A stretch of 64,000 bases of DNA, from NCBI GenBank assembly GCA_963740355.1, contig CAVUDW010000003.1:2048001-2112000 (forward strand), read 5' to 3'. Below are positions 1-42,896 of this stretch, one piece after another. The translations under genes and the position numbers were made by a program. This DNA comes from an uncultured Gemmatimonadaceae bacterium. Its GTDB lineage: Bacteria; Gemmatimonadota; Gemmatimonadetes; Gemmatimonadales; Gemmatimonadaceae. Positions within the stretch are counted from its first letter, which is position 1, and every line of letters starts with the position of its first letter. Below the pieces are notes generated by a model that had not been told where the DNA came from, did not search any database, and saw only the letters and a list, made by a program, of their open reading frames with translations.

Positions 1-1
1 A

Positions 2-3000
2 ATTCCGGAGCTGCGCACCGCAGCCAACGACGCGCAACGGCTGGCCACCTTGCTGGCCGAGCAACACAGCTACGATGTCACCACGCTGATCGACGCCGAT
101 GCCTCACGGGCACGCCTGACGGAATTGCTGACGAAGGAGCTGCCCGCGCGCGTCGGTGTCGACGACCGCGTGCTCTTCTACTTCGCCGGCCATGGTGTGG
201 CGCGCGACAGTGACGAAGGCCCGAACGGCTACCTGCTTCCAGCGGACGCGCGACGCGGTGACGAGTCCACGTACCTCAACATGCCGCTGGTGCACGACGC
301 GCTGCTTGGACTCAGCTGCCGCCACATGCTGGTCGTGCTCGACTCCTGCTTTTCCGGCGCATTCCGGTGGTCGGGCACACGCGACGCCGAGGAAGTGGTG
401 GAGGTGGTGCATCAGGAGAAGTATGACCGGTTCGTGAAGGACCCCGCCTGGCAGGTGATCACCTCCGCCTCGCAAGACCAAAAGGCCATCGACCAACTCT
501 CGGCAGGCGCACTCGGGAGCCGTGATGGCGATGGCGCACATTCCCCATTCGCGCTCGCCCTGTTCGATGGATTGAGCGGCAAGGGCGATGTCATTCCGCG
601 CGAGGGTGGCGACGGGTTGGTGACGGCCACCGAGCTCTATCTCTATCTCGACGAGACACTGCAGAGCGCGGCACTGGCCGCAGGCAAGACGCAGACGCCA
701 CGACTGTGGCCGCTGAAGAAGCACGACAAGGGCGAGTTCGTCTTCTTCGTTCCAGGCCGCGATCTCTCGCTGCCCCCGGCGCCACCGCTCACCTTCGACA
801 ACAATCCGTGGCGCGGCCTCGCATCGCACGACGCCACCAATGCGACGCTGTTCTTTGGGCGTGATGCAGAAACGGAAGCGCTGCGAAAGAAGGTCGAAGC
901 CAATCCACTGACCGTGGTGCTGGGTGCATCCGGCACAGGAAAGTCTTCGCTGGTGAAGGCCGGCGTCGTCCCTCGCCTCACGGCCGGCGGCTGGCTGGTG
1001 TTGCCGATTGTGCGCCCGGGGTCAACACCGCTGATCGCGCTTGCACAGGCACTGTCGGTTGACGGTCAGGGCTCGGCCGGCGCCGCCACTCCGGAGAGCG
1101 TCACTGCCGTGATGCAGCGACTCCTCGATGCACAGGGCGACAAGAAAGTCGTGCTGGTGATCGATCAGTTCGAGGAACTGATCACCCTCGTGCCCTCCGG
1201 CGCCGAGCGCGATCGCACGCTGGCGCTGCTCGCCAGTCTCGCCGATGCGCACGCCGATCGCTTGCGCATCGTCGTCACGATCCGCACCGACTTCGAGCCC
1301 AATTTCGACCGCTCCGCCTTCGGCGATCGGTGGCGAGAGGGCCGCTACAACGTGCCACCGATGTCGCGGCAGAATCTCCGCGACGTGATCGAGAAGCCGG
1401 CCGCCGCGCGAGTGTTGTACTTCGACCCATCCAGCCTCGTGGACACGCTGCTGGACGAGGTGGTGACGACGCCGGGCGCGTTGCCACTGCTCTCCTTTGC
1501 GTTGAGCGAGATGTACATCGCCTACGTAAAGCGCCAGAGCAGCGATCGTGCCATCACACGCGCCGACTACGATGGCCTTGGTGGAGTCGCTGGCGCACTT
1601 CGCTCGCGCGCCGAATCCGAGTACGCCGCGCTCGACGCGGCACATCGCGCCACGCTGCGTCGCGTCATGCTGCGCCTGGTGACCGGTGAAGGTGGTGGCC
1701 TCGCACGGCGGCGAGTGATGGATGCCGAACTCGATTTTGCCGACATGGACGAACATGCCCGCGCCGCCAACGTGGTGCAGCGCCTCACCGCCGCACGACT
1801 GCTCGTCGAAGGGAAGGAACCGGATGGCGAGGCATTCGTCGAACCGGCGCACGATGCACTGGTCCGTGGCTGGGGACGCCTGATGGAATGGGTGCGCGAA
1901 GAGAACGAAGCGAAATTCGCGCTCTCGCAGCAGCAACGGCTCACGCGATCGGCCACCGAATGGGAGCGAGCCGACGCCACCTCGAAATCCGGCCTGTTGT
2001 GGAGCGACTCGTCGCGCAGCGCCCAGCTGGCGCCGCTGGTTCGGAAGAAGGCCCCGTGGCTCAATCGTCGAGAGCTGGCTTTCGCGCAGCGCAGCATCCG
2101 GGGGCGGCGGATCACGATGGCAACCGTCGCCGGCGCGCTGCTCACCATCACCGCGGCCGGAATCGTCGCCATCGTGGGCGGCCTGCGAGCCAGTGCACGA
2201 GCCGAGCAGGTTCGCATCGGGGCAATCGTCCGCACGGCCACCTCGATGGTGACCGAGGATCCGATGATCGCCGGCCTGCTGCTCGGCAGCATCGACAGCG
2301 CCGCCGTCGAGAAGGCTGATGCCGCCACCCGTCTCGCGATGCTCGGCGCCGCACTCGAGCTGCGTCGCGGGCCTCGCGTCCTGGCCACCTTCAACGCCGA
2401 CGATGAAGTCGTCGCGGCGCGGATCAGCCCCGATGGCCGATCGGTGGCGACCGCCGTGATCGACAATGAAGTGCGGATCTGGCGCGCCGATGGCACCGGG
2501 TCACCGCTGGTGCTGCGGCAGCCGAACATGCCGGTGACGGCGATCGAGTTTTCGCCGAGCAGTGATCGTCTGGCCGTCGGCGATGCAAACGGCGCGATCC
2601 GCATCTGGCCACGAACCGGCCCCGGCGCTCCAGTCACGCTGCCGGGCGATGCGACGCCCGTCTTGCGGATGCAGTTCAGCCGAGACGGCAGACGCCTGCT
2701 GGTGACGTACGATGTCGGTGCGGCGAAGATCTGGACGACCGACGGCTCGGGCTCGCCAACCGAGATCCAGTCGAAGAAGATCAAGTACCTCGTCGCCGGC
2801 GTGTCGCCTGAGACCGGCAAGGACATGCTCACCCCAGCGTTCGTGGGCGTGGACGAGGCGCTGTTCGCCGATGGCGATCGACAGGTCGTGACGATCATGC
2901 GCGACAGCAGCGTGCAATTCTGGCCCAGCGTCGGTGTGGCCGAGCCGACGCGCACGGTACGACTGCCGCGACGCGAGGAACCGACGCGGATCGCGGTCAG

Positions 3001-4684
3001 CCCGGACGGCAAACGCGTCGCCGTCGGCGGTCGGAACGCGCAACTCTTCGTGCTCGATCTGGGCGTCAAGTCGCGCAGCCTGCGGCTCTCCGGCGCCACC
3101 GGCGACATCGCGGCGCTCGGCTGGAGCCCCGACGGCGCGATGTTGGTGAGTACTGCCACCGACACCGGCATGCTGGTGTGGAATACGACCTCGGGCGAAC
3201 GCATCCGCCGATTCCGGCACAACGGCGAGGCGATGCAATCGGCCGATTTCAGCCCGGACGGTCGCTCGATCATCACGACCTCGCCGTATTCGTTTCAGGC
3301 TACCATCTGGTCGCTCGACAGCGCGGTCGTCGCGCTCCCAGGCCAGACGAACGAGCTGGTGGCGGCAGACTTCGCCCCTGATTCGCGTCGCGTCCTCACG
3401 GCCGCGAAAGACGGCAGCGTGCGGCTCTGGTCGCTACCAGACCCACCCATCTACTCCGAACGCGGTGGCATCGAAAGCGAACATCCCGAAGGAGGCAACA
3501 TCGCGGCGGTGGCATTCTCGCCGGACGAAAGAACGATCGCGATGAGTACGCTGGACGGTCTTATGTATCAAAAGCGGCTTGATAGTGTCTCGATGAAGCG
3601 TATGATCGACTCTGCGCCAGGGACGCTGCGGACGCTGGCATTTTCGCCTGATGGACGCCGCCTGCGCGGTCTCCTGTACGACGGAACGCGGCGACTCTGG
3701 ACGCTCGGCACAATCCCGTCCCGTGCGGACGTCCCGACGAGCTCGACCGCATTTGCGATCACCACGGAGTTCGCCGCCGACGGTCGGCACGCACTCTCCA
3801 TCACCGATCAGGGCAGCGCGCTGGTGTGGGATGTCGACACGAAATCACCGCCGATGACGCTGCAGCTTCTCCCCGCCGATTCCATCTGCGCCGGTCAGGA
3901 CGGCGACGACGATTGCGCCGATCCGTTGGATAGCTGCGCCGCGCTGTCGCGCGATGGTCAGTTCGCGGCGGCATGCCTGCGCGCGGGTCCGGCCGCGATC
4001 TACCGCGTGCCGACGACGACGCCATTCCGCACGATCACGACACCCCGATCGAGCCGGTCCACAGCCGTGGCATTCAATTCCGACGCCAGCCGGATCGCGG
4101 TCGGCTACGGCAACGGCAGCATTCGGCTCTTCACGGTCGCCGGCGCAGATACCGGCCGCCTGATCGCAGGACATCGGCAGGCGGTAAAGCTGCTCGACTT
4201 CTCCCCCGATGGTCAGCGACTGCTCTCGGCCGCCAAGGACGGCACGGTCCGCGTCTGGGACACCGCGACGGGCACCTCGCTCGTCACCATCCGACCCAAA
4301 GGCCTGGTGATTCAGGTCGCGAAGTTCACGCGCGACGGGACACGCATCGTCACGCTCGGCGCCGGCGAAGTGGATGGTCGGCTGTGGAACGCTGATGGGT
4401 CGGGCGGCTTCGTCTCGATGCCGGCCGGGCGAGGCGAAGTCCGCGAGCTGTATCCCAGCGCCAGTGGCAGATGGCTGCTGGCCACCAGTGCCGAGCAGAC
4501 CGCCCAGCTCTATCCACTCGATCCGAATGATGCGATCGCCGCATTTCGAAATGCCCGCACCTGCATGACAGTGGCCGAACGCCAGCGGTACCTCACCGAG
4601 TCCGCGCCAGACGCGACAACCCGATATCGAGCGTGCGAGACAAGTCGACGTGGTACTGATACGACGACAACGCCTGCGCGATGA
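2..4684 (+). CDS. Caspase-like (peptidase C14) + nSTAND1-type P-loop NTPase + transmembrane helix + WD40 repeat protein; 5' end lies outside the window
   Basis: Frame is open from base 2 (IPELRTAANDAQRLATLL, typical C14 N-terminal helix). Catalytic FYFAGHG and LDSCFSG; NPWRGL pre-ATPase motif; Walker A GASGTGKSS; Walker B VLVIDQFEE; PGALPLLSFAL and HDALVRGWGRL winged-helix motifs; hydrophobic helix near 2111-2185; many FSPDG...VRxW WD40 blades. Confidence 0.93.
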   Translation: MPELRTAANDAQRLATLLAEQHSYDVTTLIDADASRARLTELLTKELPARVGVDDRVLFYFAGHGVARDSDEGPNGYLLPADARRGDESTYLNMPLVHDALLGLSCRHMLVVLDSCFSGAFRWSGTRDAEEVVEVVHQEKYDRFVKDPAWQVITSASQDQKAIDQLSAGALGSRDGDGAHSPFALALFDGLSGKGDVIPREGGDGLVTATELYLYLDETLQSAALAAGKTQTPRLWPLKKHDKGEFVFFVPGRDLSLPPAPPLTFDNNPWRGLASHDATNATLFFGRDAETEALRKKVEANPLTVVLGASGTGKSSLVKAGVVPRLTAGGWLVLPIVRPGSTPLIALAQALSVDGQGSAGAATPESVTAVMQRLLDAQGDKKVVLVIDQFEELITLVPSGAERDRTLALLASLADAHADRLRIVVTIRTDFEPNFDRSAFGDRWREGRYNVPPMSRQNLRDVIEKPAAARVLYFDPSSLVDTLLDEVVTTPGALPLLSFALSEMYIAYVKRQSSDRAITRADYDGLGGVAGALRSRAESEYAALDAAHRATLRRVMLRLVTGEGGGLARRRVMDAELDFADMDEHARAANVVQRLTAARLLVEGKEPDGEAFVEPAHDALVRGWGRLMEWVREENEAKFALSQQQRLTRSATEWERADATSKSGLLWSDSSRSAQLAPLVRKKAPWLNRRELAFAQRSIRGRRITMATVAGALLTITAAGIVAIVGGLRASARAEQVRIGAIVRTATSMVTEDPMIAGLLLGSIDSAAVEKADAATRLAMLGAALELRRGPRVLATFNADDEVVAARISPDGRSVATAVIDNEVRIWRADGTGSPLVLRQPNMPVTAIEFSPSSDRLAVGDANGAIRIWPRTGPGAPVTLPGDATPVLRMQFSRDGRRLLVTYDVGAAKIWTTDGSGSPTEIQSKKIKYLVAGVSPETGKDMLTPAFVGVDEALFADGDRQVVTIMRDSSVQFWPSVGVAEPTRTVRLPRREEPTRIAVSPDGKRVAVGGRNAQLFVLDLGVKSRSLRLSGATGDIAALGWSPDGAMLVSTATDTGMLVWNTTSGERIRRFRHNGEAMQSADFSPDGRSIITTSPYSFQATIWSLDSAVVALPGQTNELVAADFAPDSRRVLTAAKDGSVRLWSLPDPPIYSERGGIESEHPEGGNIAAVAFSPDERTIAMSTLDGLMYQKRLDSVSMKRMIDSAPGTLRTLAFSPDGRRLRGLLYDGTRRLWTLGTIPSRADVPTSSTAFAITTEFAADGRHALSITDQGSALVWDVDTKSPPMTLQLLPADSICAGQDGDDDCADPLDSCAALSRDGQFAAACLRAGPAAIYRVPTTTPFRTITTPRSSRSTAVAFNSDASRIAVGYGNGSIRLFTVAGADTGRLIAGHRQAVKLLDFSPDGQRLLSAAKDGTVRVWDTATGTSLVTIRPKGLVIQVAKFTRDGTRIVTLGAGEVDGRLWNADGSGGFVSMPAGRGEVRELYPSASGRWLLATSAEQTAQLYPLDPNDAIAAFRNARTCMTVAERQRYLTESAPDATTRYRACETSRRGTDTTTTPAR

Positions 4685-4747: not shown

Positions 4748-7669
4748 GTGACCACGCCCAACCTCCCTGGTGATCCGAAGCCGGTGAACGGGCCGCCTCT
4801 CTCCGGCGTGATCGCCAACCGCTACCGGATCGAACGGCAGATCGGCGAGGGCGGGATGGCGACGGTCTACCTCGCCCACGACCTCACACGCGGGGTATCG
4901 GTCGCACTGAAGGCGCCCAAGGCCGAGTTGGTGATGCAGCTCGGCGCGGCACGCTTTGCGCGCGAAATCCAGATCTCGACCAAGCTGCAGCACCCGCACA
5001 TCGTCCCCGTGCTGGACGCTGGTTTCGCCTCGGAGTCGGTGCCGTTCTACGTCATGCCGTTCATCGACGGCGAGACGCTCGAGCAGAAGCTGGAGCGAAC
5101 CGGCGCCCTCCCCATCGACGAAGCGATCACCATCGCCACCGAAGTGCTGGACGGGCTGATCTACGCGCACAAGCAAGGCTTCGTGCACCGCGACGTAAAG
5201 CCATCGAATGTTCTGATCGCAAACGGGCATGCGATGTTGGCTGACTTCGGCATCGCGCGCGCCGTCGAGACGACCGACAACCGCAAGCTGACCGAGTCGG
5301 GCTTTGCGCTCGGCACCGCCGAGTACATGAGTCCCGAGCAGGCGGCCGGCGATGCGCAGCTCGACGGTCGCAGCGATCAGTACAGCCTCGGTTGCGTGCT
5401 CTATGAAATGCTGGTCGGCGGACCACCGTTCAGCGCGCCGACGGCACGCGCCGTGATGGCTCGGCACTTCGTGGATCCCGTGCCGAGCATTCGCACGGTG
5501 CGCGACACCGTGCCGGAGAAGCTCGAGCAGGCGGTGATGACTGCCCTGTCGAAGATTCCGGTCGATCGATTCGCGGACGCCGCAGCCTTCAAGGCAGCGC
5601 TGAAGGACCCGACGCTGCGCGACGCGACGGCGGCGAGACCGACCACCGCGGCACTGGCAAGGCGCAAGCGAACACGCGTCGTGGGTGGCGTACTCGCGGC
5701 GGTAGCCGTGATCGCGGCACTCACTCTCTGGCGTATGGGTGGAAGTGCCAGTGCGGTGCTCGATCCGAATCGGGTCATGGTCTACCCGTTCGTGACGCCT
5801 GCCGGCTACAGCGGTGCACAAGCGGTGGGCGAAGACGTTGCCACCATCATCGGCAACGCACTCGATGCGGCCGAGCCATTGCGTTGGGTGGACGGGTGGT
5901 CGATGCTCGCCGCGAAGGATCGCGAGAATATCCGGCTGCTCGAAGCGGATGACGCGCGCCGGCTGGCACGTGAGAAACGCTGCGCCACGTTCATCACCGG
6001 GAGGCTCGTGCCGAGCGGTGATTCCGTGAAGGTGTACCTCACGCTGAATGATGTCAGCGGTGACTCGGTACTGGCGCAGGGCGAAGCCACCGGCAGCGCA
6101 AAGGACCCATGGCGCCAGGGCCTTCGCGCCATGAGCGGCATCCTGCCGAAGCTGATCCCGGGCGGCACCAGAGACGTTTCGGCGGACTGGAAGGATCGCA
6201 GCCCTGGTGCGGTCGCCAGCTTCCTCCTTGGCGAAGCAGCATTCCGTCGCGTGCAGATGACGGATGCGCTGACGCGCTTCCGCAAGGCAATCGAGCTCGA
6301 TTCGACCTTTGCGCTGGCGGCGTTGCGTGGCGCACAGGCGGCATCCTGGAATCACCGGAGCGCTGAAGCTGCGTCGATGGTGTCTGTTGCACTCACGCAG
6401 CCGTTACCACCACGCTATCACCAGCTTGCGGTCGGAATCGCGGCGTATCTCGCCGGGCACGCCGATTCTGCGATCGTTCACCTGCATGCAGCGACAGCGG
6501 CCGATCCGGATATGACCGTCGCCTGGATGCAGCTGGGTGAGGTGTACACACACCTGCTGCCGTTGGCTGGCAATACCGACTCACTGGCAGACCTCGCATT
6601 TTCGCGGGCACGGATGCTCGACACCAATGCGGCGAGCGCACTGCTGCATCCGATCGAGATACGCCTTCGTCGCGCCGACACGGTCGCGGCGCAGGCGCTT
6701 CTGGCACGCTTCCGCGCCGCAAACCCTGATGCGCCCCTTCTTGCGCCGCTCACGATCGCCGAGACCTGCGTGACCAAGGGCGCGACGGCGGTAGACTGGA
6801 ACGGCGAGGCCGCGCGGCAACCGCTCTACCTTCTCGCAGCATCGAAGACACTCGCCGGTGGTGGCGCGCAGCTCGAGTGCGCGGTCGCAGGCTTCCGCGC
6901 GATTCTGGCCATCGATACGGCGGCGACGGATGAAGCCGATGCCCGGCGATTCGCCGCCATGCTCGGCCTGCAGGCAATTCACCTCGCCCGTGGTCAGCCG
7001 GCGTTGGCATCTGCCACCATCGATGCATTCGTCGCCCGCTGGGGTGCAGGGTCATCGCTGTTCCTGCTCGATGGAGCATTCGAGCCCGCGCTGCTCGCTC
7101 GGGCTAGCGCGGTCGCCGCATCGGATGCCGCGACGTACGGTGTGAACTACACCAACTTGCCGTACGCGCGGCGACTCTGGGAGTTGGGGATACTCGAGAT
7201 GCGGACGGGCAGCGTGGACGTGGCCGCAGCGGCCGCCGCAGAACTTCGCCGCCGCGGTGCCGACCCCGACTCCAGCTATGCGCTCGCACGCGCAATGTCG
7301 CTCGAGGCGTTCGTCCAGCTCGCGCGCAGCACCACGAGAGCCGATTCAGCGAATGCCGAGCAGCGTTTCGTCGCGCTGCTCGAGCGCGGCCCGGACGGGG
7401 AGTCCTATCAGTGGGATGAGGCCGCACCGATGGCGGCAGAACGACTCACGCTGGCACGGTTGCTCCAGGCCCGAGGTGCGTACGAGCAGGCAATCGGTGT
7501 CGCCGAAGTGTTCGACTCGCGTTGGCCGCTGGTCTACGTGCAATTCCTGCCAGCCAGTCTCGAACTGCGGGCGGCGGCAGCGAAGTCGCTTGGCAATTCC
7601 GCGCGCGAGTCGCATTATCTAACTCGCCTCGCTGCACTGCGAAGTCAGGTGAAGGCTACCGGAGGCTGA
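4748..7669 (+). CDS. Membrane-anchored Hanks-type Ser/Thr protein kinase with TPR-like helical C-terminal region
   Basis: GEGGMATVY, VALK, HRDVKPSN, DFG and GTAEYMSPEQ motifs; TM segment VVGGVLAAVAVIAALTLW after RRKRTR; TPR-like FRKAIELDSTFALA. GTG start approximate. Confidence 0.93.
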   Translation: MTTPNLPGDPKPVNGPPLSGVIANRYRIERQIGEGGMATVYLAHDLTRGVSVALKAPKAELVMQLGAARFAREIQISTKLQHPHIVPVLDAGFASESVPFYVMPFIDGETLEQKLERTGALPIDEAITIATEVLDGLIYAHKQGFVHRDVKPSNVLIANGHAMLADFGIARAVETTDNRKLTESGFALGTAEYMSPEQAAGDAQLDGRSDQYSLGCVLYEMLVGGPPFSAPTARAVMARHFVDPVPSIRTVRDTVPEKLEQAVMTALSKIPVDRFADAAAFKAALKDPTLRDATAARPTTAALARRKRTRVVGGVLAAVAVIAALTLWRMGGSASAVLDPNRVMVYPFVTPAGYSGAQAVGEDVATIIGNALDAAEPLRWVDGWSMLAAKDRENIRLLEADDARRLAREKRCATFITGRLVPSGDSVKVYLTLNDVSGDSVLAQGEATGSAKDPWRQGLRAMSGILPKLIPGGTRDVSADWKDRSPGAVASFLLGEAAFRRVQMTDALTRFRKAIELDSTFALAALRGAQAASWNHRSAEAASMVSVALTQPLPPRYHQLAVGIAAYLAGHADSAIVHLHAATAADPDMTVAWMQLGEVYTHLLPLAGNTDSLADLAFSRARMLDTNAASALLHPIEIRLRRADTVAAQALLARFRAANPDAPLLAPLTIAETCVTKGATAVDWNGEAARQPLYLLAASKTLAGGGAQLECAVAGFRAILAIDTAATDEADARRFAAMLGLQAIHLARGQPALASATIDAFVARWGAGSSLFLLDGAFEPALLARASAVAASDAATYGVNYTNLPYARRLWELGILEMRTGSVDVAAAAAAELRRRGADPDSSYALARAMSLEAFVQLARSTTRADSANAEQRFVALLERGPDGESYQWDEAAPMAAERLTLARLLQARGAYEQAIGVAEVFDSRWPLVYVQFLPASLELRAAAAKSLGNSARESHYLTRLAALRSQVKATGG

Positions 7670-7697
7670 GCCTCCATTCCCGTCCGAGGGTAGTTCG

Positions 7698-8027
7698 ATG
7701 ACCAAAGGTCGCGAAGGTGATGTCGTTGCGCCGACATCGAGTAAGGGTCGTGATGGCGACATCGTGGCGCCGGTCTCAGGCAAGGGACGCGAGGGAGACA
7801 TCGTCGCGCCGGTCTCAGGCAAGGGTCGCGAGGGAGACATCGTCGCGCCGGTGTCAGGCAAGGGTCGCGAAGGAGACATTGTCGCACCGGTCTCGGGCAA
7901 GGGTCGCGAAGGGGACATCGTCGCGCCGGTCTCAGGCAAGGGACGCGAAGGCGACATCGTCGCACCGGTCTCGGGCAAGGGTCGCTCCGGTGGGGAACCG
8001 GTGAAGAAGGACCCGCGCGACCGATAG
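7698..8027 (+). CDS. 109-aa tandem-repeat peptide, 7 x 13-aa KGR(E/D)GD(I/V)VAP(V/T)S(G/S) plus an eighth KGR
   Basis: ATG preceded by GAGGG; 28 bp after the kinase stop and 31 bp before the next caspase start, same strand. Units 3-7 are identical in protein and differ in DNA only at synonymous third positions. Confidence 0.8.
   Translation: MTKGREGDVVAPTSSKGRDGDIVAPVSGKGREGDIVAPVSGKGREGDIVAPVSGKGREGDIVAPVSGKGREGDIVAPVSGKGREGDIVAPVSGKGRSGGEPVKKDPRDR
7704..7985 (+). repeat. 39-bp coding tandem repeat, 7 full units plus a partial unit
   Basis: Units start at 7704, 7743, 7782, 7821, 7860, 7899 and 7938, partial at 7977; consensus AAGGGTCGCGARGGNGACATCGTCGCRCCGGTCTCRGGC. Confidence 0.97.
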
Positions 8028-8058: not shown

Positions 8059-9636
8059 ATGACGATGCCCGAGTCTTCTGTCGACGGCGTCCGCCGCGCC
8101 GTGGTCATTGGCGTCGACAACTACACCAAGAAGCCGCTCGACGGGTGCGTTGCCGACGCGACGATGATGGCCGAGGTACTGCAGCAGCGGTTCGCGTTCG
8201 ACAAGGCGAATATCTCGCTCCTGCTGAACGATGCCGCGCGCCGCGATGCCGTGCTTGCGGAGCTCGACCAGCTCGTCGATCTCACCACGGCGAACGATGT
8301 CGCGTTCATCTTTTACGCCGGCCATGGTTCACAGTCGGTGAATAGCGACAACACCGAATCGAGTGGCTACGACAGCACCTTCAACGTCTGCGACAATCCG
8401 CGCGAGGACATTCTCGACGACGAGATCGCGGCGCGCCTCGCTGCCCTCGGCGAGAAGTCGCCCTGGACGGTGATGATCGTTGACGCCTGCAATTCAGGCA
8501 CGCTCACCCGCAGCGCAGACGCCGGGCCGAAAGAACGCTGGACGCCGCCGGTCGACCGCACAGCCCTGCCGGCCGCTGCGCAGCAGGCGCTCACGACGCG
8601 AAGTCCCGTCGCTGCAACACCGGAGTCGTACGTTCTCCTGACGGCCTGCCGTGATGGCGAGATCGCGCAGGAGACGGTCATCCCCGGCGACCAGACCATC
8701 CACCACGGGGCGTTCACGTTTGCACTCGTTCACGAGTTGCAGCGCGCAATCGGTGGCGACACCTGGCGCGACGTATTCGATCGGGTGTCACGGGCGGTCA
8801 GCACAGTGCACAAGGAGCAGCACCCGCAGATCGATGGCAATCTCGATCGCGAAATCTTCGGCCTCCGGCAACTGCCACCGATGCCGTTCGTGGCCATCAC
8901 TGATCGCGCCAGTACCTCCGCCGTGCTCGCCGCCGGCTCGCTGCACGGTGTCAGCATCGGCAGCGTGTACACGATCTACGCCGATGGGACCAAGGATGTC
9001 ACCGGCGCAGCGTCGCTTGGCACGGTCGAAGTGACACTGGTGAAGGGCACCACGTCTCGTGCACGCGTCGTCTCTGAGACGGCACCTGGTGCGATCGTGA
9101 TCGGCTCACGCGCTGTACAATCACAACGCCGAACAGTCGACGATGCGCTTGCGCTCACCAATACCGATCCGAAGAGCCGCATGCAGGGTGCCGTCACCCT
9201 CGAGATCCTTCGTCGTGACGTCGACGGTGCGTGGGCCGTCGCCATGGACGACGTGTCGTTCGGCATGCCCGTCTTCGACTCCGGCGATCGCATCGCATTT
9301 CGCATGACGAACACACTCGATGAGCCAGTGTTCGTGAACCTCTTTGACTTCGACCCGACGGGTACGGTGTCAGTCAAGACGAAAGGCTGGGCGAATCAGC
9401 TGAAGGCAAAGGGGGTGTTCGAGATCGGTACGGACACCCGCAAGATCTCGATGCGCTGGGATGCGGATGACGCGGTGGAGTCGTTCAAGCTGTTTGCATC
9501 CGTCGCGCAGGTGGACCTCTCCTGGCTCCTGCAGCTCGACCAGCCGGGGCGCGGCACTGAGGAGGTGTCATCGCTTGCGGTCGACGACTGGTGCTCGCAC
9601 GTGAAGTCAATCCGCATCCGTCGGAAACTCGCATGA
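8059..9636 (+). CDS. Caspase-like protease (peptidase C14, meta/orthocaspase type) with C-terminal Ig-like (DUF4384-like) domain
   Basis: RRAVVIGVDNY..LDGCVADA, FYAGHGS (His), VDACNSG (Cys), LLTACRDGEIAQE, HGAFTFAL, QHPQIDG; C-terminal GDRIAFRMTN...VFVNLFDFDPTG...ESFKLFAS. Confidence 0.92.
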   Translation: MTMPESSVDGVRRAVVIGVDNYTKKPLDGCVADATMMAEVLQQRFAFDKANISLLLNDAARRDAVLAELDQLVDLTTANDVAFIFYAGHGSQSVNSDNTESSGYDSTFNVCDNPREDILDDEIAARLAALGEKSPWTVMIVDACNSGTLTRSADAGPKERWTPPVDRTALPAAAQQALTTRSPVAATPESYVLLTACRDGEIAQETVIPGDQTIHHGAFTFALVHELQRAIGGDTWRDVFDRVSRAVSTVHKEQHPQIDGNLDREIFGLRQLPPMPFVAITDRASTSAVLAAGSLHGVSIGSVYTIYADGTKDVTGAASLGTVEVTLVKGTTSRARVVSETAPGAIVIGSRAVQSQRRTVDDALALTNTDPKSRMQGAVTLEILRRDVDGAWAVAMDDVSFGMPVFDSGDRIAFRMTNTLDEPVFVNLFDFDPTGTVSVKTKGWANQLKAKGVFEIGTDTRKISMRWDADDAVESFKLFASVAQVDLSWLLQLDQPGRGTEEVSSLAVDDWCSHVKSIRIRRKLA

Positions 9637-11555
9637 CACCCCGGGTCTACGCCCTCCTGGTGGGCATCAACGACTACGTCGCCGTGCCCAAGCTGCATGG
9701 CTGCGTCGCGGACATCTCGGCCGTGGAAGCACTGCTGTCCTCACGCATCCCGAAGGACGCGCTCGACATGCAGGTCTTGCATGACGACAATGCGACCCGC
9801 GCCGGCATCATCGACGGATTCCGGACTCACCTGCGAAAGGCCGCGGCGGACGACATCGCGGTGTTCTACTTCTGTGGCCACGGATCGCAGGAGAATTGCC
9901 CGCCGGAGTGGCTCCCGCTCGAGCCAACGAGCAAGAACCAGACGATCGTGCCGGTGGACGCCCGAACCGGCGACGTGTTCGACATCGCGGACAAGGAGTT
10001 GAGTGCGCTGATCCACGAAGTGGCAGCAGGTGGTGCACAGGTGGTGACGATCTTCGACTCGTGTCACTCCGGTGGCGTGACACGTGATATCGACGACACG
10101 ACGCTCGGGCATGAGAGCCCCGTGCGCATGACTGCCGCCAGCACCGGGCGGACGCGAACACTCGCCGACTATCTCGATCTCGCACGCACCCTGTACGACC
10201 CGACGCGCATCGCCGCCGAGGGGCCACCCGATCCCAGTCATATCGCGATCTCGGCCTGTCAGTACGACCAGACGGCGAAGGAATTCCCGATACAGCCACC
10301 GCGCCGCGGTGCGTTCACGCAGGCGTTCGAAGAGGCAGCGAGTTCGCTCGGCCCGTCTGCGAGCTACATCGATCTCGTCACAGCGGTCCGCACGAGAGTG
10401 CGTGATCGCGCCACGGACCAGATGCCGAGCCTCTCAGTGATTGGCAAGGCCGACGGTGCCTCGATCTTCATGGCAGGGCATGTCGGGCGGCGGGACCTCA
10501 CCTTGGACATCGATTCGACCGGAGCATGGTGGTTGTCGTCGGGATCGATCACCGGTATTCCGCCAACTGAAAGCGGCAACGTCACCTCCGTCGCCATTTT
10601 CCCGCGAGGCGCCTTCGACTCGCCTGCCGCGACACCTGCGCCGATTGCGACAGCGACCATCGATCTCGTCACCGCCGATCGTGCACGTTTGAAGTTGGGC
10701 AGCAATTCAGCACCGCTTGATGCCGCACAGCAGTACCTCGGTACAATTTCTGGTATGGGTACGCCGCCCCTCAATGTCGTCGTTACTGGGGCGGTGGCCG
10801 AGCAGACTGCGGCAGTCACGACGGTCCTGGCCGGGCGCAGTGGGCTGTTCGCCGTGAATGCGACGGCGACATCGAGCTTGCCGACGGTCACCGTTCGTGT
10901 CGATGCGACAACAGCCACGATCCACGACGCCGATGGCGCGCCATTGCCGAACCAGCAGTTCACGCTCGAAGCCGCGGGGCTGCAGTCGCTCGCCAACGCC
11001 TGTGATCATCTCGCGAAGTGGTACGGCACGCGCGATCGCACGCCGATCGCATCGACGCTCAACGGCAGGGTGACGATCGACGTCGTGCCCGTCGCGCCCG
11101 GTGAGACGACGGTTCCTCCTGATCGCGCTGCTGTCGCTCCCACCAATGGCACGGTCGTGCTGCGCTACACGGGTGACCAGCCGCCGGTGGTGCAGTTCCG
11201 GCTCAAGAACACGTCGGGAGTGCGGTTGTATGTCGCACTCCTCGACCTCACCGATTCGTATGGATGCTCGGTGAAGTTCAGCGATTGGATTCCCGCCGGC
11301 GGCACGGCGCTCGCCGGTGGCGGCAAGACGTACAAGATGAGCTTTGCCGCGTGGCGGGATCCGTCGTTCACGGTCACGACCGACATCATGAAGCTCTTCG
11401 CCGCCACCAGTGATTTCAGCACGACGCAGCTCGTGCTCGAATCGCTGTTGAAGCCGAAGGTGGTGGGCGGGACGCGGGAAGCGGTGGAGGAGGAAGAGGA
11501 GCCGGACACGTCCTTTTGGGGGACGACGGCGGTTGTCGTGGAGACGCGGCGGTAG
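9633..11555 (+). CDS. Caspase-like protease (peptidase C14) with C-terminal Ig-like (DUF4384-like) domain
   Basis: ATG overlaps the upstream stop (ATGA at 9633-9636); YALLVGINDY..LHGCVAD, FYFCGHGS, FDSCHSGG, ISACQYDQTAKE, RGAFTQA; C-terminal FRLKNTS..LYVALLDL...DIMKLFAAT. Confidence 0.92.
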   Translation: MTPRVYALLVGINDYVAVPKLHGCVADISAVEALLSSRIPKDALDMQVLHDDNATRAGIIDGFRTHLRKAAADDIAVFYFCGHGSQENCPPEWLPLEPTSKNQTIVPVDARTGDVFDIADKELSALIHEVAAGGAQVVTIFDSCHSGGVTRDIDDTTLGHESPVRMTAASTGRTRTLADYLDLARTLYDPTRIAAEGPPDPSHIAISACQYDQTAKEFPIQPPRRGAFTQAFEEAASSLGPSASYIDLVTAVRTRVRDRATDQMPSLSVIGKADGASIFMAGHVGRRDLTLDIDSTGAWWLSSGSITGIPPTESGNVTSVAIFPRGAFDSPAATPAPIATATIDLVTADRARLKLGSNSAPLDAAQQYLGTISGMGTPPLNVVVTGAVAEQTAAVTTVLAGRSGLFAVNATATSSLPTVTVRVDATTATIHDADGAPLPNQQFTLEAAGLQSLANACDHLAKWYGTRDRTPIASTLNGRVTIDVVPVAPGETTVPPDRAAVAPTNGTVVLRYTGDQPPVVQFRLKNTSGVRLYVALLDLTDSYGCSVKFSDWIPAGGTALAGGGKTYKMSFAAWRDPSFTVTTDIMKLFAATSDFSTTQLVLESLLKPKVVGGTREAVEEEEEPDTSFWGTTAVVVETRR

Positions 11556-41198: not shown

Positions 41199-42896
41199 AT
41201 GATGCGTCGATCGTTAGCGGTGTTTGCGGCTCTCTCGCTGGTCGGCATTGCACAGCCGACCTCGGTCGCCGCGCAGGAGAGCCGCCCGTCAGGCGAGTAC
41301 ACCGATGAAATGGATCGGTACTCGGCCGACCAGCTGGACAACCTGGTCGGCCCGATCGCCCTCTACCCCGACGCGCTGCTGGCGCAGGTCCTGGTGGCGT
41401 CGACCTTCCCCGACCAGATCGAGGAGGCCGCGCGTTTCGTGCGGGCCAATGGCACCGACGACATCGACGACCAGTCGTGGGACGTGAGCGTGAAGGCGGT
41501 GGCCCACTACCCGTCGGCCCTCAACATGATGGCCGACAAGTCCGACTGGACGACGGCGCTCGGTCGTGCCTATGCCACGCAGTCGAGCAATGTGATGGCA
41601 GCCGTGCAGCGCATGCGCGCGATGGCGGACAGCCAGGGCAACCTGCGCTCGACGTCGCAGCAGTCGGTGTCGCGCGATGACGACGACTATTACGTCATCG
41701 CTCCGGCACAGCCGCGCGTGATCTACGTGCCGGTGTACGATCCGTACTACATCTACACGCAGCCGGTCTTCGGCCTCAATTATTCGAGTCGCTACTGGTC
41801 GTTCGGCATCGGCTTCCCGATCGGTGGCTGGCTGTCATACGACTGCAACTGGCGCACCCGTGCGGTCTACTACAACGGCTGGGATGTCGGCTATTACGGC
41901 TACGCCGGTGGCTGGCGCGCCCGTTCGCGCCCGTACATCCAGATCACGAACGTGTACGTCAATCCGCGCTACCGGAACGTGTACATCAATCGTGACGTGA
42001 TCCATCGTCGCGTGGAGTACCGCAACGTGGACCGCTATCCTGGCGTGCATCGGGATACGCGCTTCGGCAGCCGTGACGCGAACTATCGCGATGGCCGCGA
42101 CCGCGGCCGCTATGACTCGCGTCGCGATGTGCCGGTGCGCGGTGGGTATGTCGGTGGTGTGCGGAACGTGCCGGATCGCGGGGGTCGGTACGACGGTCGC
42201 CAGGACAACGACCGTCGGGACAACGACCGTCGGGACAACAACCGTCAGGACAACACCGGTGGCGACCGCGGGAACAACGATCGTCGCGGCAACGCCGGCG
42301 GCATGAGCAACAACTCCGGCAACGGATCGTGGAACACCGGTCGCGACTCGCGTTCGTCCTCGGACAACGGTGGTCGCACGGTGGGTGATGGTCGCGGCGG
42401 CAGCGTCGGTGGCAGTCGTGCTGATGACGGCGGTCGCACCATCGGCGACGGTCGCGGTGGCAGCATCGGCGGCAATCGGACGGATGCCAATGGCAACTGG
42501 AATCGCGATCGCGGGCAGGACACGCCGCGCGCAATTCCGCAGAGGGCGCCGCAGCAGAACGACAATGGTGGTCGCACCATCGGTGATGGTCGCGGTGGCA
42601 GCATCGGCGGTAATCGCAGTGACGATGGCGGCGGCTGGAATCGCGGCCGCGGGCAGGATACACCGCGCGCCGTTCCGCAGCAGAACGACAATCGCGGCGG
42701 CTGGGGCCGCGATCGTGGTGCGCAGTCACAGCCGGCCCGTGCGCCTCGTGAGCAGCGCAACGAGCAGCCGATGGTGAACCCGCGTCGTGCGGAACCACAG
42801 GGCAACGACGGCGGAGGTCGTGGCAATGGCGGCGGCCGTGGCAATGATGGTGGACGTGGCGGTCAGCGCGGTGGCCGCGAGCGCCCACGGGTGTAA
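41199..42896 (+). CDS. Exported DUF3300 protein with a long Gly/Arg/Asp/Asn-rich disordered tail
   Basis: Signal peptide; QLDNLVGPIALYPDALLAQVLVASTFP, WDVSVKA, IAPAQPRVIYVPVYDP. Confidence 0.9.
   Translation: MMRRSLAVFAALSLVGIAQPTSVAAQESRPSGEYTDEMDRYSADQLDNLVGPIALYPDALLAQVLVASTFPDQIEEAARFVRANGTDDIDDQSWDVSVKAVAHYPSALNMMADKSDWTTALGRAYATQSSNVMAAVQRMRAMADSQGNLRSTSQQSVSRDDDDYYVIAPAQPRVIYVPVYDPYYIYTQPVFGLNYSSRYWSFGIGFPIGGWLSYDCNWRTRAVYYNGWDVGYYGYAGGWRARSRPYIQITNVYVNPRYRNVYINRDVIHRRVEYRNVDRYPGVHRDTRFGSRDANYRDGRDRGRYDSRRDVPVRGGYVGGVRNVPDRGGRYDGRQDNDRRDNDRRDNNRQDNTGGDRGNNDRRGNAGGMSNNSGNGSWNTGRDSRSSSDNGGRTVGDGRGGSVGGSRADDGGRTIGDGRGGSIGGNRTDANGNWNRDRGQDTPRAIPQRAPQQNDNGGRTIGDGRGGSIGGNRSDDGGGWNRGRGQDTPRAVPQQNDNRGGWGRDRGAQSQPARAPREQRNEQPMVNPRRAEPQGNDGGGRGNGGGRGNDGGRGGQRGGRERPRV

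Follow-up and report, generated by a model that had tools for sequence, protein, structure and literature searches.

The repeat gene and its neighbours

We analysed a 64,000-nt stretch of DNA from an uncultured Gemmatimonadaceae bacterium (contig CAVUDW010000003.1, positions 2,048,001 to 2,112,000; hereafter the window), in which a short gene, P0001 (7698-8027, forward strand), lies between the genes of a Ser/Thr protein kinase and a caspase-like protease and encodes a tandem-repeat mini-protein. Coordinates are window positions, G000 is the window's own genome, and other G and L numbers denote the genomes and loci compared. Translation of the open reading frame (ORF) gives 109 amino acids (aa), comprising Met-Thr, seven units and an eighth KGR that opens a basic, non-repeat tail, SGGEPVKKDPRDR. 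The seven in-register 39-bp units (7704-7976, forward strand) follow the pattern K-G-R-[E/D]-G-D-[I/V]-V-A-P-[V/T]-S-[G/S], with the core Arg-x5-Ala-Pro; in the register that starts at 7704, the first unit reads KGREGDVVAPTSS, the second KGRDGDIVAPVSG, and each of units 3-7 KGREGDIVAPVSG. Tandem Repeats Finder placed the array at 7703-7985 (period 39, 7.3 copies, 85% matches, no indels) with a score of 377, the highest among its 43 rows for the 64-kb window. The seven 39-bp units and eight KGR motifs described in an initial annotation of this DNA were thereby reproduced by both the repeat finder and the translation. That annotation had also stated that units 3-7 encode one peptide in spite of seven silent sites. 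Indeed, the nucleotide differences among these units fall at seven codons only, exactly those it had listed, and all are silent (GGA/GGT, GAG/GAA, GGA/GGG/GGC, ATC/ATT, GCG/GCA, GTC/GTG, and TCA/TCG).

A Shine-Dalgarno (SD)-like GAGGG, read from the sequence, occupies 7686-7690 (forward strand), 12 nt before the ATG of the repeat ORF, which is separated by 28 nt from the kinase stop and by 31 nt from the caspase start; the ribosome-binding site and operon-like spacing noted at the outset are therefore present. Equally, the reported lack of a signal or leader peptide holds for the window protein, whose first unit begins at residue 3, in which no hydrophobic N-terminus was found (at most six of any 15 residues are A, V, L, I, F, M, W, or C), and which has neither Cys nor aromatic residues. 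If all eight KGR sites were cut, the predicted products would be MTKGR, two variant 13-mers, five identical EGDIVAPVSGKGR peptides, and the tail, in agreement with the earlier count of five identical 13-mers plus variants. Contigs from four DNA runs gave only short fragments, none of which spans the array; the X1 pieces and one X2 piece (7588-7768) were identical to the window.

All genes of the cluster lie on the forward strand. The first (1-4684) encodes a caspase (C14)-nSTAND1 NTPase-WD40 propeller protein of 1583 aa that starts 68 nt before the window; Pfam matched nSTAND1 (7e-100) and WD40 in its product, and an N-terminal Peptidase_C14 domain with the motifs FAGHG and DSCFSG in the extended ORF (L188:9933-12000). 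It is followed by the kinase gene (4748-7669; 973 aa; Pkinase, 5e-46), whose product carries the motifs VALK52, HRD147, DFG166, and SPE195 and a long C-terminal helical region with only weak TPR matches in Pfam (TPR_11, 0.0074 in the window; TPR_19, 7.6e-6 in G015). Downstream of the repeat gene, caspase 1 (8059-9636; 525 aa) consists of a C14 domain (Peptidase_C14, 1.3e-27) with the motifs YAGHG and DACNSG, then two beta-rich C-terminal domains, with a weak match to DUF4384 (0.0017). Caspase 2 (9633-11555) has a C14 domain (Peptidase_C14, 2e-24) with the motifs FCGHG and DSCHSG, followed by ~360 aa that match no known family; its ATG at 9633 and the end of the caspase 1 gene share 4 nt. The reading frame of caspase 2 is already open from a GTG at 9591, which makes the Met encoded at 9633 the 15th residue of the ORF. 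The location of the repeat ORF inside a caspase/kinase cluster, as first described, agrees with Pfam annotation of both the window and its relatives.

Comparison with those relatives showed that the constant core of the cluster is the kinase, the repeat ORF, and the caspase. In G006, G009, G015, G258, G309, G331, and G449 the repeat gene is preceded by that of a kinase orthologue of 952-995 aa, and an upstream Ser/Thr kinase was confirmed by Pfam in 8 of 20 loci. The nSTAND-WD40 gene is present in G000 and G015, and a WD40 ORF lies directly upstream in G258, while no nSTAND/WD40 ORF was found between the esterase and kinase genes of G012 or G006; the caspase-nSTAND1-WD40 protein is thus an optional, sensor-type member of the cluster. 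CHAT protease genes also occur in the G003, G309, and G449 loci. Flanking genes vary between genomes (RCC1/resistance-nodulation-division efflux, rhodanese, M28 peptidase, type VI secretion IcmF), and no CRISPR or SAVED sensor was seen in the annotated stretches of the loci.

A conserved repeat gene upstream of one caspase lineage

Orthologues of caspase 1 were sought in 61 related genomes, 20 of the same genus and 41 of other genera, with a full-length cut-off of E <= 1e-120. Full-length orthologues were found in 11 of the 20 same-genus genomes, and when the DNA preceding the caspase gene was read in six frames, all 11 had a repeat ORF directly upstream, with tandem units containing Arg and Ala-Pro; no full-length orthologue was found in the 41 genomes of other genera. 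G036 gave a partial match (1.5e-44) at the start of a contig. The repeat genes of G003 and G013 are cut by contig ends; in G003 the repeat copy breaks the assembly into two contigs, and the rest of the gene lies at the end of the other. A scan of one genome per species returned the same-genus genomes and one further locus, L028, which also carries a repeat ORF and whose record bears the unconfirmed label Acidimicrobiia; it also returned 70 non-orthologous caspase loci. A metagenome scan with caspase 1 gave five close loci, four of which (L108, L109, L110, and L171) have a complete repeat ORF; for the fifth, L111, where only 444 nt of upstream sequence is present, the filter listed none.

We also ran a profile of the repeat family, A2, on 301 genomes of the family (1e-6) and 401 of the phylum (1e-5). 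It matched at least seven of the former, including three of another genus (G258, G309, and G331), and at least three of the latter, including G449 of another family in the order; both tallies are lower bounds for the 8-residue-unit form, since at E <= 1e-6 the profile misses that form in G010. One of the three phylum matches, in G575, was rejected as false, as stop codons fall inside it and there is no repeat ORF. In G258, G309, G331, and G449 Pfam shows a kinase gene, then the repeat ORF, then a caspase gene (its product carrying DUF7379 in three of the loci), followed by the gene of either a CHAT protease or a second caspase.

Altogether, 20 loci were examined, 16 from Gemmatimonadales-type genomes and four from metagenome contigs, and in all 20 the repeat ORF is directly upstream of the caspase gene. 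Since an in-phase tandem repeat was found directly upstream in only 2 of the 70 non-orthologous loci (L085 and L089, Phycisphaerae), the association is specific to this caspase lineage, to which the linkage of the repeat ORF is obligate. Spacing is similarly conserved: the gap between kinase and repeat gene is 23-52 nt in the 16 of 17 genes for which one was found, and that between the repeat gene and the next ORF start is 23-99 nt in 17/17, the downstream gene being a Peptidase_C14. The initial annotation had proposed a search for analogous repeat ORFs with periodic Arg near homologous loci, and such ORFs were found at every homologous locus examined. The repeat family is a new, lineage-restricted small protein family of unusual architecture in Gemmatimonadales from soil and sediment.

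Genes of the family contain 3 to about 15 units, with unit lengths of 8, 12, 13, 14, and 27 aa, and all units keep Arg-x4-5-(Ala/Pro)-Pro. Thirteen-residue KGREGDIVAPVSG in the window is replaced by KGRSDGVAPVTS in G002 and G004, KGREDSVAPVTG in G012, KGRGGDAAPQAV or its KAV form in G003, L109, L171, and L110, KGRGRDTTAAPAPN in G009, KGREGGAVAPAPS in L028, and a 27-residue double unit in G006. Short units are found in G015 (KREGVAAP), G013 (KREGAAAP), G010 (KREGSAAP), and G008 (TREGSAAP), and the more distant members have KGREGGTAPAKTT (G258), KGRTGDSPPPAA (G309), KGREGEIAPKSSS (G331), and GGREGATAPPPA (G449). The only invariant columns of the alignment, which does not contain G309, are the start Met, the unit Arg, and the unit Ala and Pro; in the G309 unit, Pro-Pro replaces Ala-Pro. 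Arg-x4-[Ala/Pro]-Pro is the commonest spacing, with x5 in the window and L028. The periodic Arg is preceded by Gly or Lys and followed by Glu, Ser, Gly, Asp, or Thr, and the preceding Lys is dispensable (Thr in G008, Gly in G449). The initial annotation had suggested that the Ser just before GKGR might be a site through which the adjacent kinase gates cleavage. However, Ser and Thr are absent from three unit types (those of G015, of G013, and of the G003/L109/L171/L110 group) and shift in position elsewhere, so that gating through this Ser is not a conserved feature of the family. The G331 member (L209 4984-5349) has an N-terminal Lys/Ala/Pro tract (AKKAAKKAVKKAPKKAPKKAP...) before only three units; it resembles histone H1-like tails, and the protein could have a polyanion-binding anchor in some species.

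Within a gene, unit identity is 0.87-1.00, vs. 0.33-0.61 between distant genes with equal unit length, and the sequences thus indicate concerted evolution, in which units are homogenised within a gene and diverge between species. Copy number differs even between near-identical contigs: L109:2070-2477 encodes 135 aa with five units and L171:1854-2477 encodes 207 aa with 11 units, whereas their flanks are 99.7-99.8% identical and the gene ends are identical. This difference reflects either copy-number polymorphism or collapse of short reads.

Since the repeat might conceivably be open by chance and never translated, acting instead on the DNA or RNA level, for instance as a regulatory array or as a spacer prone to recombination, its coding status was weighed in several ways. 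Antisense frames are often open in this GC-rich DNA, which lends that explanation some support, as does the absence of eight exact family ORF sequences from a collection of 15 billion proteins; GC content by codon position did not distinguish the frames in these genes. However, the frame identified initially is the only one open in 13/13 genes, the antisense frame that shares its wobble positions having stops in 6/13. We further compared distinct departures from each gene's unit consensus in 11 genes with the expectation under uniform single-base change. In this frame 103 of 140 within-array variants were synonymous vs. 38.5 expected, while the four frames that do not share its wobble positions had 13-19 synonymous of 140; the binomial p of about 1e-29 is overstated, because variants of close relatives (G002/G004 and L110/L171) are not independent, yet the direction is unambiguous. 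Four further genes agree. Within each of G309, G449, and G331 the listed units encode identical peptides despite 15, eight, and four nucleotide variants, respectively, and Ser codons switch between AGY and TCN within the G309 and G331 arrays while the peptide is unchanged; in G258, with two unit types, 15 of 20 variants are synonymous. A start codon (ATG, or GTG in G258) and an SD-like motif that begins 8-12 nt upstream are conserved in 17/17 complete family genes, every unit length is a multiple of three, and the peptide motif is kept over units of 8-27 aa where the DNA can no longer be aligned. These results contradict a non-coding array, which we regard as having next to no chance of being correct. 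The repeat ORF is a real gene under purifying selection on its peptide, as the initial annotation had claimed in pointing to protein-level selection, and from these sequence features its translation is very likely.

The family seems to have been overlooked by gene calling. Caspases from the same contigs (G000, G012, G006, and G015) are present in the 15-billion-protein collection from which the repeat members are missing, and the repeat gene was evidently not called by the underlying annotation. A search of 5.8 billion clusters at near lengths yielded no homologue (E <= 0.01), an Atlas search gave a best score of 0.81, which is chance level, a PDB profile search had no match at E <= 1, and Pfam, PADLOC, and NCBIfam gave sub-threshold noise only (Rossmann-like, 17.5 bits vs. 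a cut-off of 23; DiaA; rubredoxin; Lcl). Screens based on predicted proteomes would therefore miss this family, since the exact sequences tried were missing and no relative was found. A profile search of 1.84 billion representatives gave 105 matches; those inspected were unrelated proteins with a 12-residue period, unlike the kinase or caspases by blastp. They include long proteins with arrays such as LIPMARFGRS and LPYPRPGRS (P0005-P0007, P0009, P0011, P0018, P0019, and P0023), and these PRFGRS/PRPGRS-type arrays look like animal precursors of multi-copy amidated neuropeptides. Their likeness to the repeat protein is a convergent layout of basic site and Pro, with no homology.

The repeat protein in relation to the neighbouring caspases

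The repeat protein is predicted to be intrinsically disordered: the AlphaFold2 (AF2) model from the family alignment had a mean predicted local distance difference test score (pLDDT) of 48.9, and DSSP assigned neither helix nor strand. Thirteen members were scored for composition, charge, Cys, and hydrophobicity. All carry a positive net charge (+3 to +39) and none contains Cys; there are hardly any aromatic residues and much Ala, Gly, Pro, and Lys. No hydrophobic segment was found in the 13, as at most 4-9 of any 15 residues, mostly Ala, were A, V, L, I, F, M, W, or C.

These properties bear on the RiPP-like (ribosomally synthesised and post-translationally modified peptide) product suggested in the initial annotation and, more broadly, on the possibility that the gene encodes an exported or RiPP-like precursor with several cores, whose units would be excised, possibly modified or ligated, and released as signals or antibiotics. 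The tandem-core layout with a basic site before each unit is what such a precursor would have, and the retrieval of PRFGRS/PRPGRS arrays by the profile shows that this layout can arise by convergence, and no more than that. Multi-copy propeptides cut at basic sites are familiar from yeast alpha-factor with Kex2, animal neuropeptide precursors, fungal Kex2-processed RiPPs, and cyanobactin PatE, and the repeat protein resembles them in having tandem identical peptides bounded by basic cleavage sites. However, those propeptides are secreted or exported, carry a signal or leader, and are matured by dedicated enzymes, whereas in the repeat protein neither a signal nor a leader is present, and no modifying or maturation enzyme, transporter, or peptidase-exporter is conserved beside the cassette. 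The only conserved neighbours are the kinase and the caspase, CHAT, and hydrolase genes, the remaining flanks differing between genomes. Lanthionine formation needs Cys plus Ser/Thr in the core, whereas Cys is found in 0/13 members and several unit types have no Ser/Thr; moreover, the kinase lacks lanthipeptide lyase and cyclase domains, sub-threshold LanL/LanKC matches being confined to its kinase domain. The suggestion of a RiPP-like product or of ligation is therefore unsupported, and we consider a precursor of this kind very improbable.

The neighbouring proteases are metacaspase-like and have an intact catalytic dyad. Pfam matches Peptidase_C14 to all three caspase domains of the window, each of which keeps its His and Cys, and in caspase 1 these residues (His89 and Cys144) are unchanged across 11 orthologues. 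By sequence, the solved structures closest to caspase 1 are those of metacaspases, and its AF2 model (pLDDT 77) had AtMC9, AtMC4, GSU0716, and MALT1 caspase-Ig3 as top Foldseek matches, with Yca1 and TbMCA2 also found. Specificity for Arg or Lys at P1 is well established for metacaspases, orthocaspases, and MALT1. The neighbouring enzymes share the C14 fold, the His/Cys dyad, and the D-x-C-[H/N]-S-G motif with metacaspases and MALT1, and differ from them in their extra beta-rich C-terminal domains, in a fused DUF7379 (long forms), and in their tandem arrangement with kinase and repeat genes. Short forms of caspase 1 (525-550 aa) occur in G000, G002, G004, G006, and G013, whereas long forms of ~1007-1170 aa (L189:13912-16935, L192:7441-10491, L194:345-3389, L207:5944-9309, L208:1491-4997, and L210:5240-8746) add a C-terminal DUF7379 alpha/beta-hydrolase-like domain that is absent from the window's short form; the G331 caspase (638 aa) also has no DUF7379 match. 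According to excerpts of the respective reports, a bacterial defence caspase has a strict preference for Arg at P1 with small residues around the site (bioRxiv 10.1101/2024.10.24.620036), and LcCaspase cleaves its alpha/beta-hydrolase partner at conserved R|G sites (PMC12642450). Given the intact His/Cys pair, the metacaspases and MALT1 as nearest solved relatives, and the Arg specificity of bacterial defence caspases, the neighbouring metacaspase-like enzymes could plausibly cleave after Arg.

The most economical reading of the array, and the one that we favour, is that of a brake or fuse: the repeat protein would be a multi-site Arg substrate or pseudosubstrate of the neighbouring caspases, comparable to the inhibitor PCi discussed below. 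Judged from sequence, model, and analogy, we hold this to be about an even proposition. The Ser/Thr kinase, two or three metacaspase-like proteases, and the mini-protein would all be expressed from one gene string, and each unit, a short linear motif whose Arg is flanked by small residues, would most likely offer that Arg to the S1 pocket of the Arg-specific caspases, with eight sites in 109 residues; these would be exposed, given that AF2 predicts disorder. Eight accessible Gly-Arg-Glu/Gly sites on an unstructured chain should make the protein an excellent substrate, in competition with other targets. While intact and abundant, the array would compete for active sites, buffer a leaky protease, and so set a threshold or a delay, whereas fully activated caspases would chop it into peptides of 8-14 residues. 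We infer that the caspases bind or cut the array, that the signal is dampened rather than transmitted, and that the cluster serves as a conflict or cell-death system. The invariance of Arg and Pro, the conserved position of the gene, and the metacaspase-like neighbours with an intact dyad are all consistent with this proposal.

Several observations weigh against it. The whole unit is constrained, including its spacers and the invariant Ala/Pro-Pro 6-7 residues after the Arg; this exceeds the known need of a P1-driven protease, so that a binding motif or a functional product fits equally well. Matches to the core motif numbered zero in 13 of 19 cluster proteins, and seven were scattered over the other six; there is hence no consistent unit-like site in the cluster proteins, and the array is not obviously a mimic of a natural cleavage site. 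The released peptides would be hydrophilic and without evident activity. Finally, the known range is narrow: three genera, two families, and one order, plus one metagenome-assembled genome (MAG) labelled otherwise in its record.

The constraint on the whole unit and the invariant Ala/Pro-Pro indicate more than a bare cleavage site and keep alive a different role, in which the Arg...Ala-Pro units would form a multivalent docking motif recognised by a repeat-type domain of the cluster, so that the array gathers several copies and serves as a scaffold or activates by proximity. The candidate partners are, foremost, the helical, TPR-like tail of the kinase, and also the WD40 propellers and the beta-rich C-terminal domains of caspase 1. 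Consistent with docking, selection acts on the entire unit and not just on residues beside the Arg, and the gene always directly follows that of the kinase (at 23-52 nt in 16 of 17 genes, as above). Units homogenised within species and divergent between them are expected of co-evolving ligand-receptor pairs, and copy number is flexible, with 5 vs. 11 units between near-identical contigs. In RRNPP systems, TPR receptors read short peptides from adjacent small genes. However, the kinase tail is only weakly assigned to TPR (TPR_11, E 0.0074; TPR_19, 7.6e-6 in G015), and the WD40/nSTAND gene is missing in G012 and G006 and so is not an obligatory partner. We regard docking as unlikely, though it deserves serious consideration. 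A bolder form of it would have caspase-released unit peptides act as intracellular ligands of the kinase, a peptide second messenger carried in many copies per precursor. In such a peptide-amplifier circuit, an activated caspase would free many identical peptides of 8-14 residues that bind the kinase helical domain or another repeat domain of the cluster; this seems to us quite improbable. If true, it would convert proteolysis into phosphorylation through species-specific peptide-receptor pairs. It would then represent a version of propeptide/TPR-receptor signalling without leader or secretion, and the first case of a bacterial caspase that processes a multi-copy signalling propeptide.

The positive charge of all 13 members, their richness in Ala, Gly, Pro, and Lys, and their Lys/Ala/Pro tracts (KKAPKKAP at the N-terminus in G331; Lys-rich tails in G015, G009, and L110/L171) could instead be those of a basic, disordered binder of polyanions such as nucleic acid, polyphosphate, or a membrane surface, with the caspase link being only co-regulation, or the repeat protein one caspase victim among many and without a dedicated role. 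Yet the net charge of the window protein is close to zero (+3, with 17 acidic residues), what is conserved is a specific Arg...Pro motif rather than charge, and the strict position between kinase and caspase in 20 loci would be left unexplained. A polyanion binder is, in our estimation, a distinctly improbable explanation.

The repeat protein can be compared with known protease partners. In the part of the report that describes it, PCi shares one Haliangium cluster with PCk (a kinase), PCaspase, and a CHAT protease; PCaspase cleaves PCi and is inhibited by it. PCi is predicted to be a folded inhibitor of the CI-2 (potato inhibitor I) type for which the authors state there that they found no homologues (bioRxiv 10.1101/2023.06.23.546230). 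The repeat protein is likewise a small protein beside a Ser/Thr kinase and a caspase-like protease, with a CHAT protease in some loci too, but is predicted to be a disordered tandem array rather than a CI-2 fold and had no PDB profile match at E <= 1. EACC1 and Pepco, as far as portions of their reports describe them, are small proteins encoded 5' of defence proteases, of which they are dedicated substrates (PMC7159879, PMC12642450); EACC1 has a single, strongly conserved transmembrane helix with a Gly patch (PMC7159879), and Pepco (~117 aa) forms a stable beta-barrel oligomer with amphipathic helices and a pore (PMC12642450). The repeat gene resembles that of EACC1 in lying immediately 5' of a caspase-domain gene in 17/17 genes, and both the EACC1/Pepco modules and the repeat clusters include STAND sensors and alpha/beta-hydrolases (DUF7379 fused to caspase 1 in many orthologues). 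In contrast to EACC1, the repeat protein has no hydrophobic segment and no EACC1-type NCBIfam or Pfam match, and, unlike Pepco, its monomer model (pLDDT 48.9) has no predicted helix or strand. A pore-forming role is unlikely, since cleavage would yield hydrophilic 8-14-mers. In its position and probable logic the repeat protein belongs with EACC1, Pepco, and PCi, yet it does not have the defining structure of any of them.

A further analogy is calpastatin, described in an excerpt of the source as an intrinsically disordered inhibitor of calpain (PMC5358782). By analogy only, the repeat protein would also consist of disordered repeated units that each engage one cysteine protease molecule; the protease clan is different, however, there is no sequence similarity, and inhibition by the repeat protein is a proposal. 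Calpastatin has four repeated inhibitory domains.

Bacterial caspase-like proteases are increasingly recognised as the executing enzymes of antiviral and cell-death programmes, and the known means of restraining them or linking them to effectors involve small dedicated partners such as EACC1, Pepco, and PCi. If the brake or fuse reading is correct, the family would add another solution, a disordered array of Arg sites whose copy number can change quickly (5 vs. 11 units), which would be a simple way to tune a threshold or delay. The natural species series would also provide co-varying pairs of motif and enzyme with which to study the specificity of prokaryotic metacaspase-like enzymes. No published description of such a caspase-linked repeat protein was found in the literature searched, which did not cover the supplements of the papers.

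Other features of the window and small genes or repeats beside other caspases

A hairpin, GGAGGC-UGA-GCCUCC, may be drawn at 7660-7690 with the kinase stop in its loop. Of the four stem pairs predicted, three are kept in 8 or more of the nine orthologous intergenic regions and one in 7 of 9, and its downstream CCUCC could instead pair with the GAGGG of the repeat gene's SD-like motif; with a z-score of -0.64 and no compensatory pairs in nine sequences, the hairpin is not claimed. A sigma-70-like promoter match, TTGGCA-17-CATTAT (7590-7618, forward strand; 9/12), falls in the 3'-terminal part of the kinase gene, ~80 nt ahead of the repeat ORF. Three such matches, this one included, were found vs. 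1.1 +/- 1.1 expected, so that it is not significant and no promoter is claimed. Elsewhere in the window, at 41199-42896 (forward strand), a 565-aa ORF unrelated to the repeat mini-protein has a signal-peptide-like N-terminus and a low-complexity C-terminus rich in Arg, Gly, Asp, and Asn, with several tandem repeats in the C-terminal region, including one of 138-bp period at 42432-42680.

Other small ORFs or repeats were seen beside caspases of the compared loci. In the two Phycisphaerae loci, a 21-bp tandem repeat (L085:1476-1654 and L089:3750-3836) lies directly upstream of an unrelated caspase gene and overlaps its start; one frame reads as RAALLxS-type heptads with periodic Arg, which have no Pfam family. 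A predicted secreted protein of 138-174 aa precedes the caspase in L046:3189-3713, L049:2213-2674, L051:925-1425, L052:3432-3848, L058:3415-3837, and L069:351-815, the hosts being Bacteroidota, Balneolaceae, and one Gemmatimonadales MAG. A signal peptide is followed in this protein by an S/A-R-G-(A/T)...EN-I-K-like motif and, at the C-terminus, by a conserved (N/D)-(Y/W)-T-x-Y...Y-(V/I/N)-(D/N)-G domain, with no Pfam match above threshold in the four checked, and may be another caspase-coupled small protein. In five Thermoanaerobaculia loci (L070-L073 and L077), a conserved ORF of 131-134 aa, of which the L071 member has no Pfam family, ends about 60-70 nt before the caspase gene, and its sequence reads …AASLLTR.CAASRLAKWNIRG…AYRDRIGRVR(T/S)YG….

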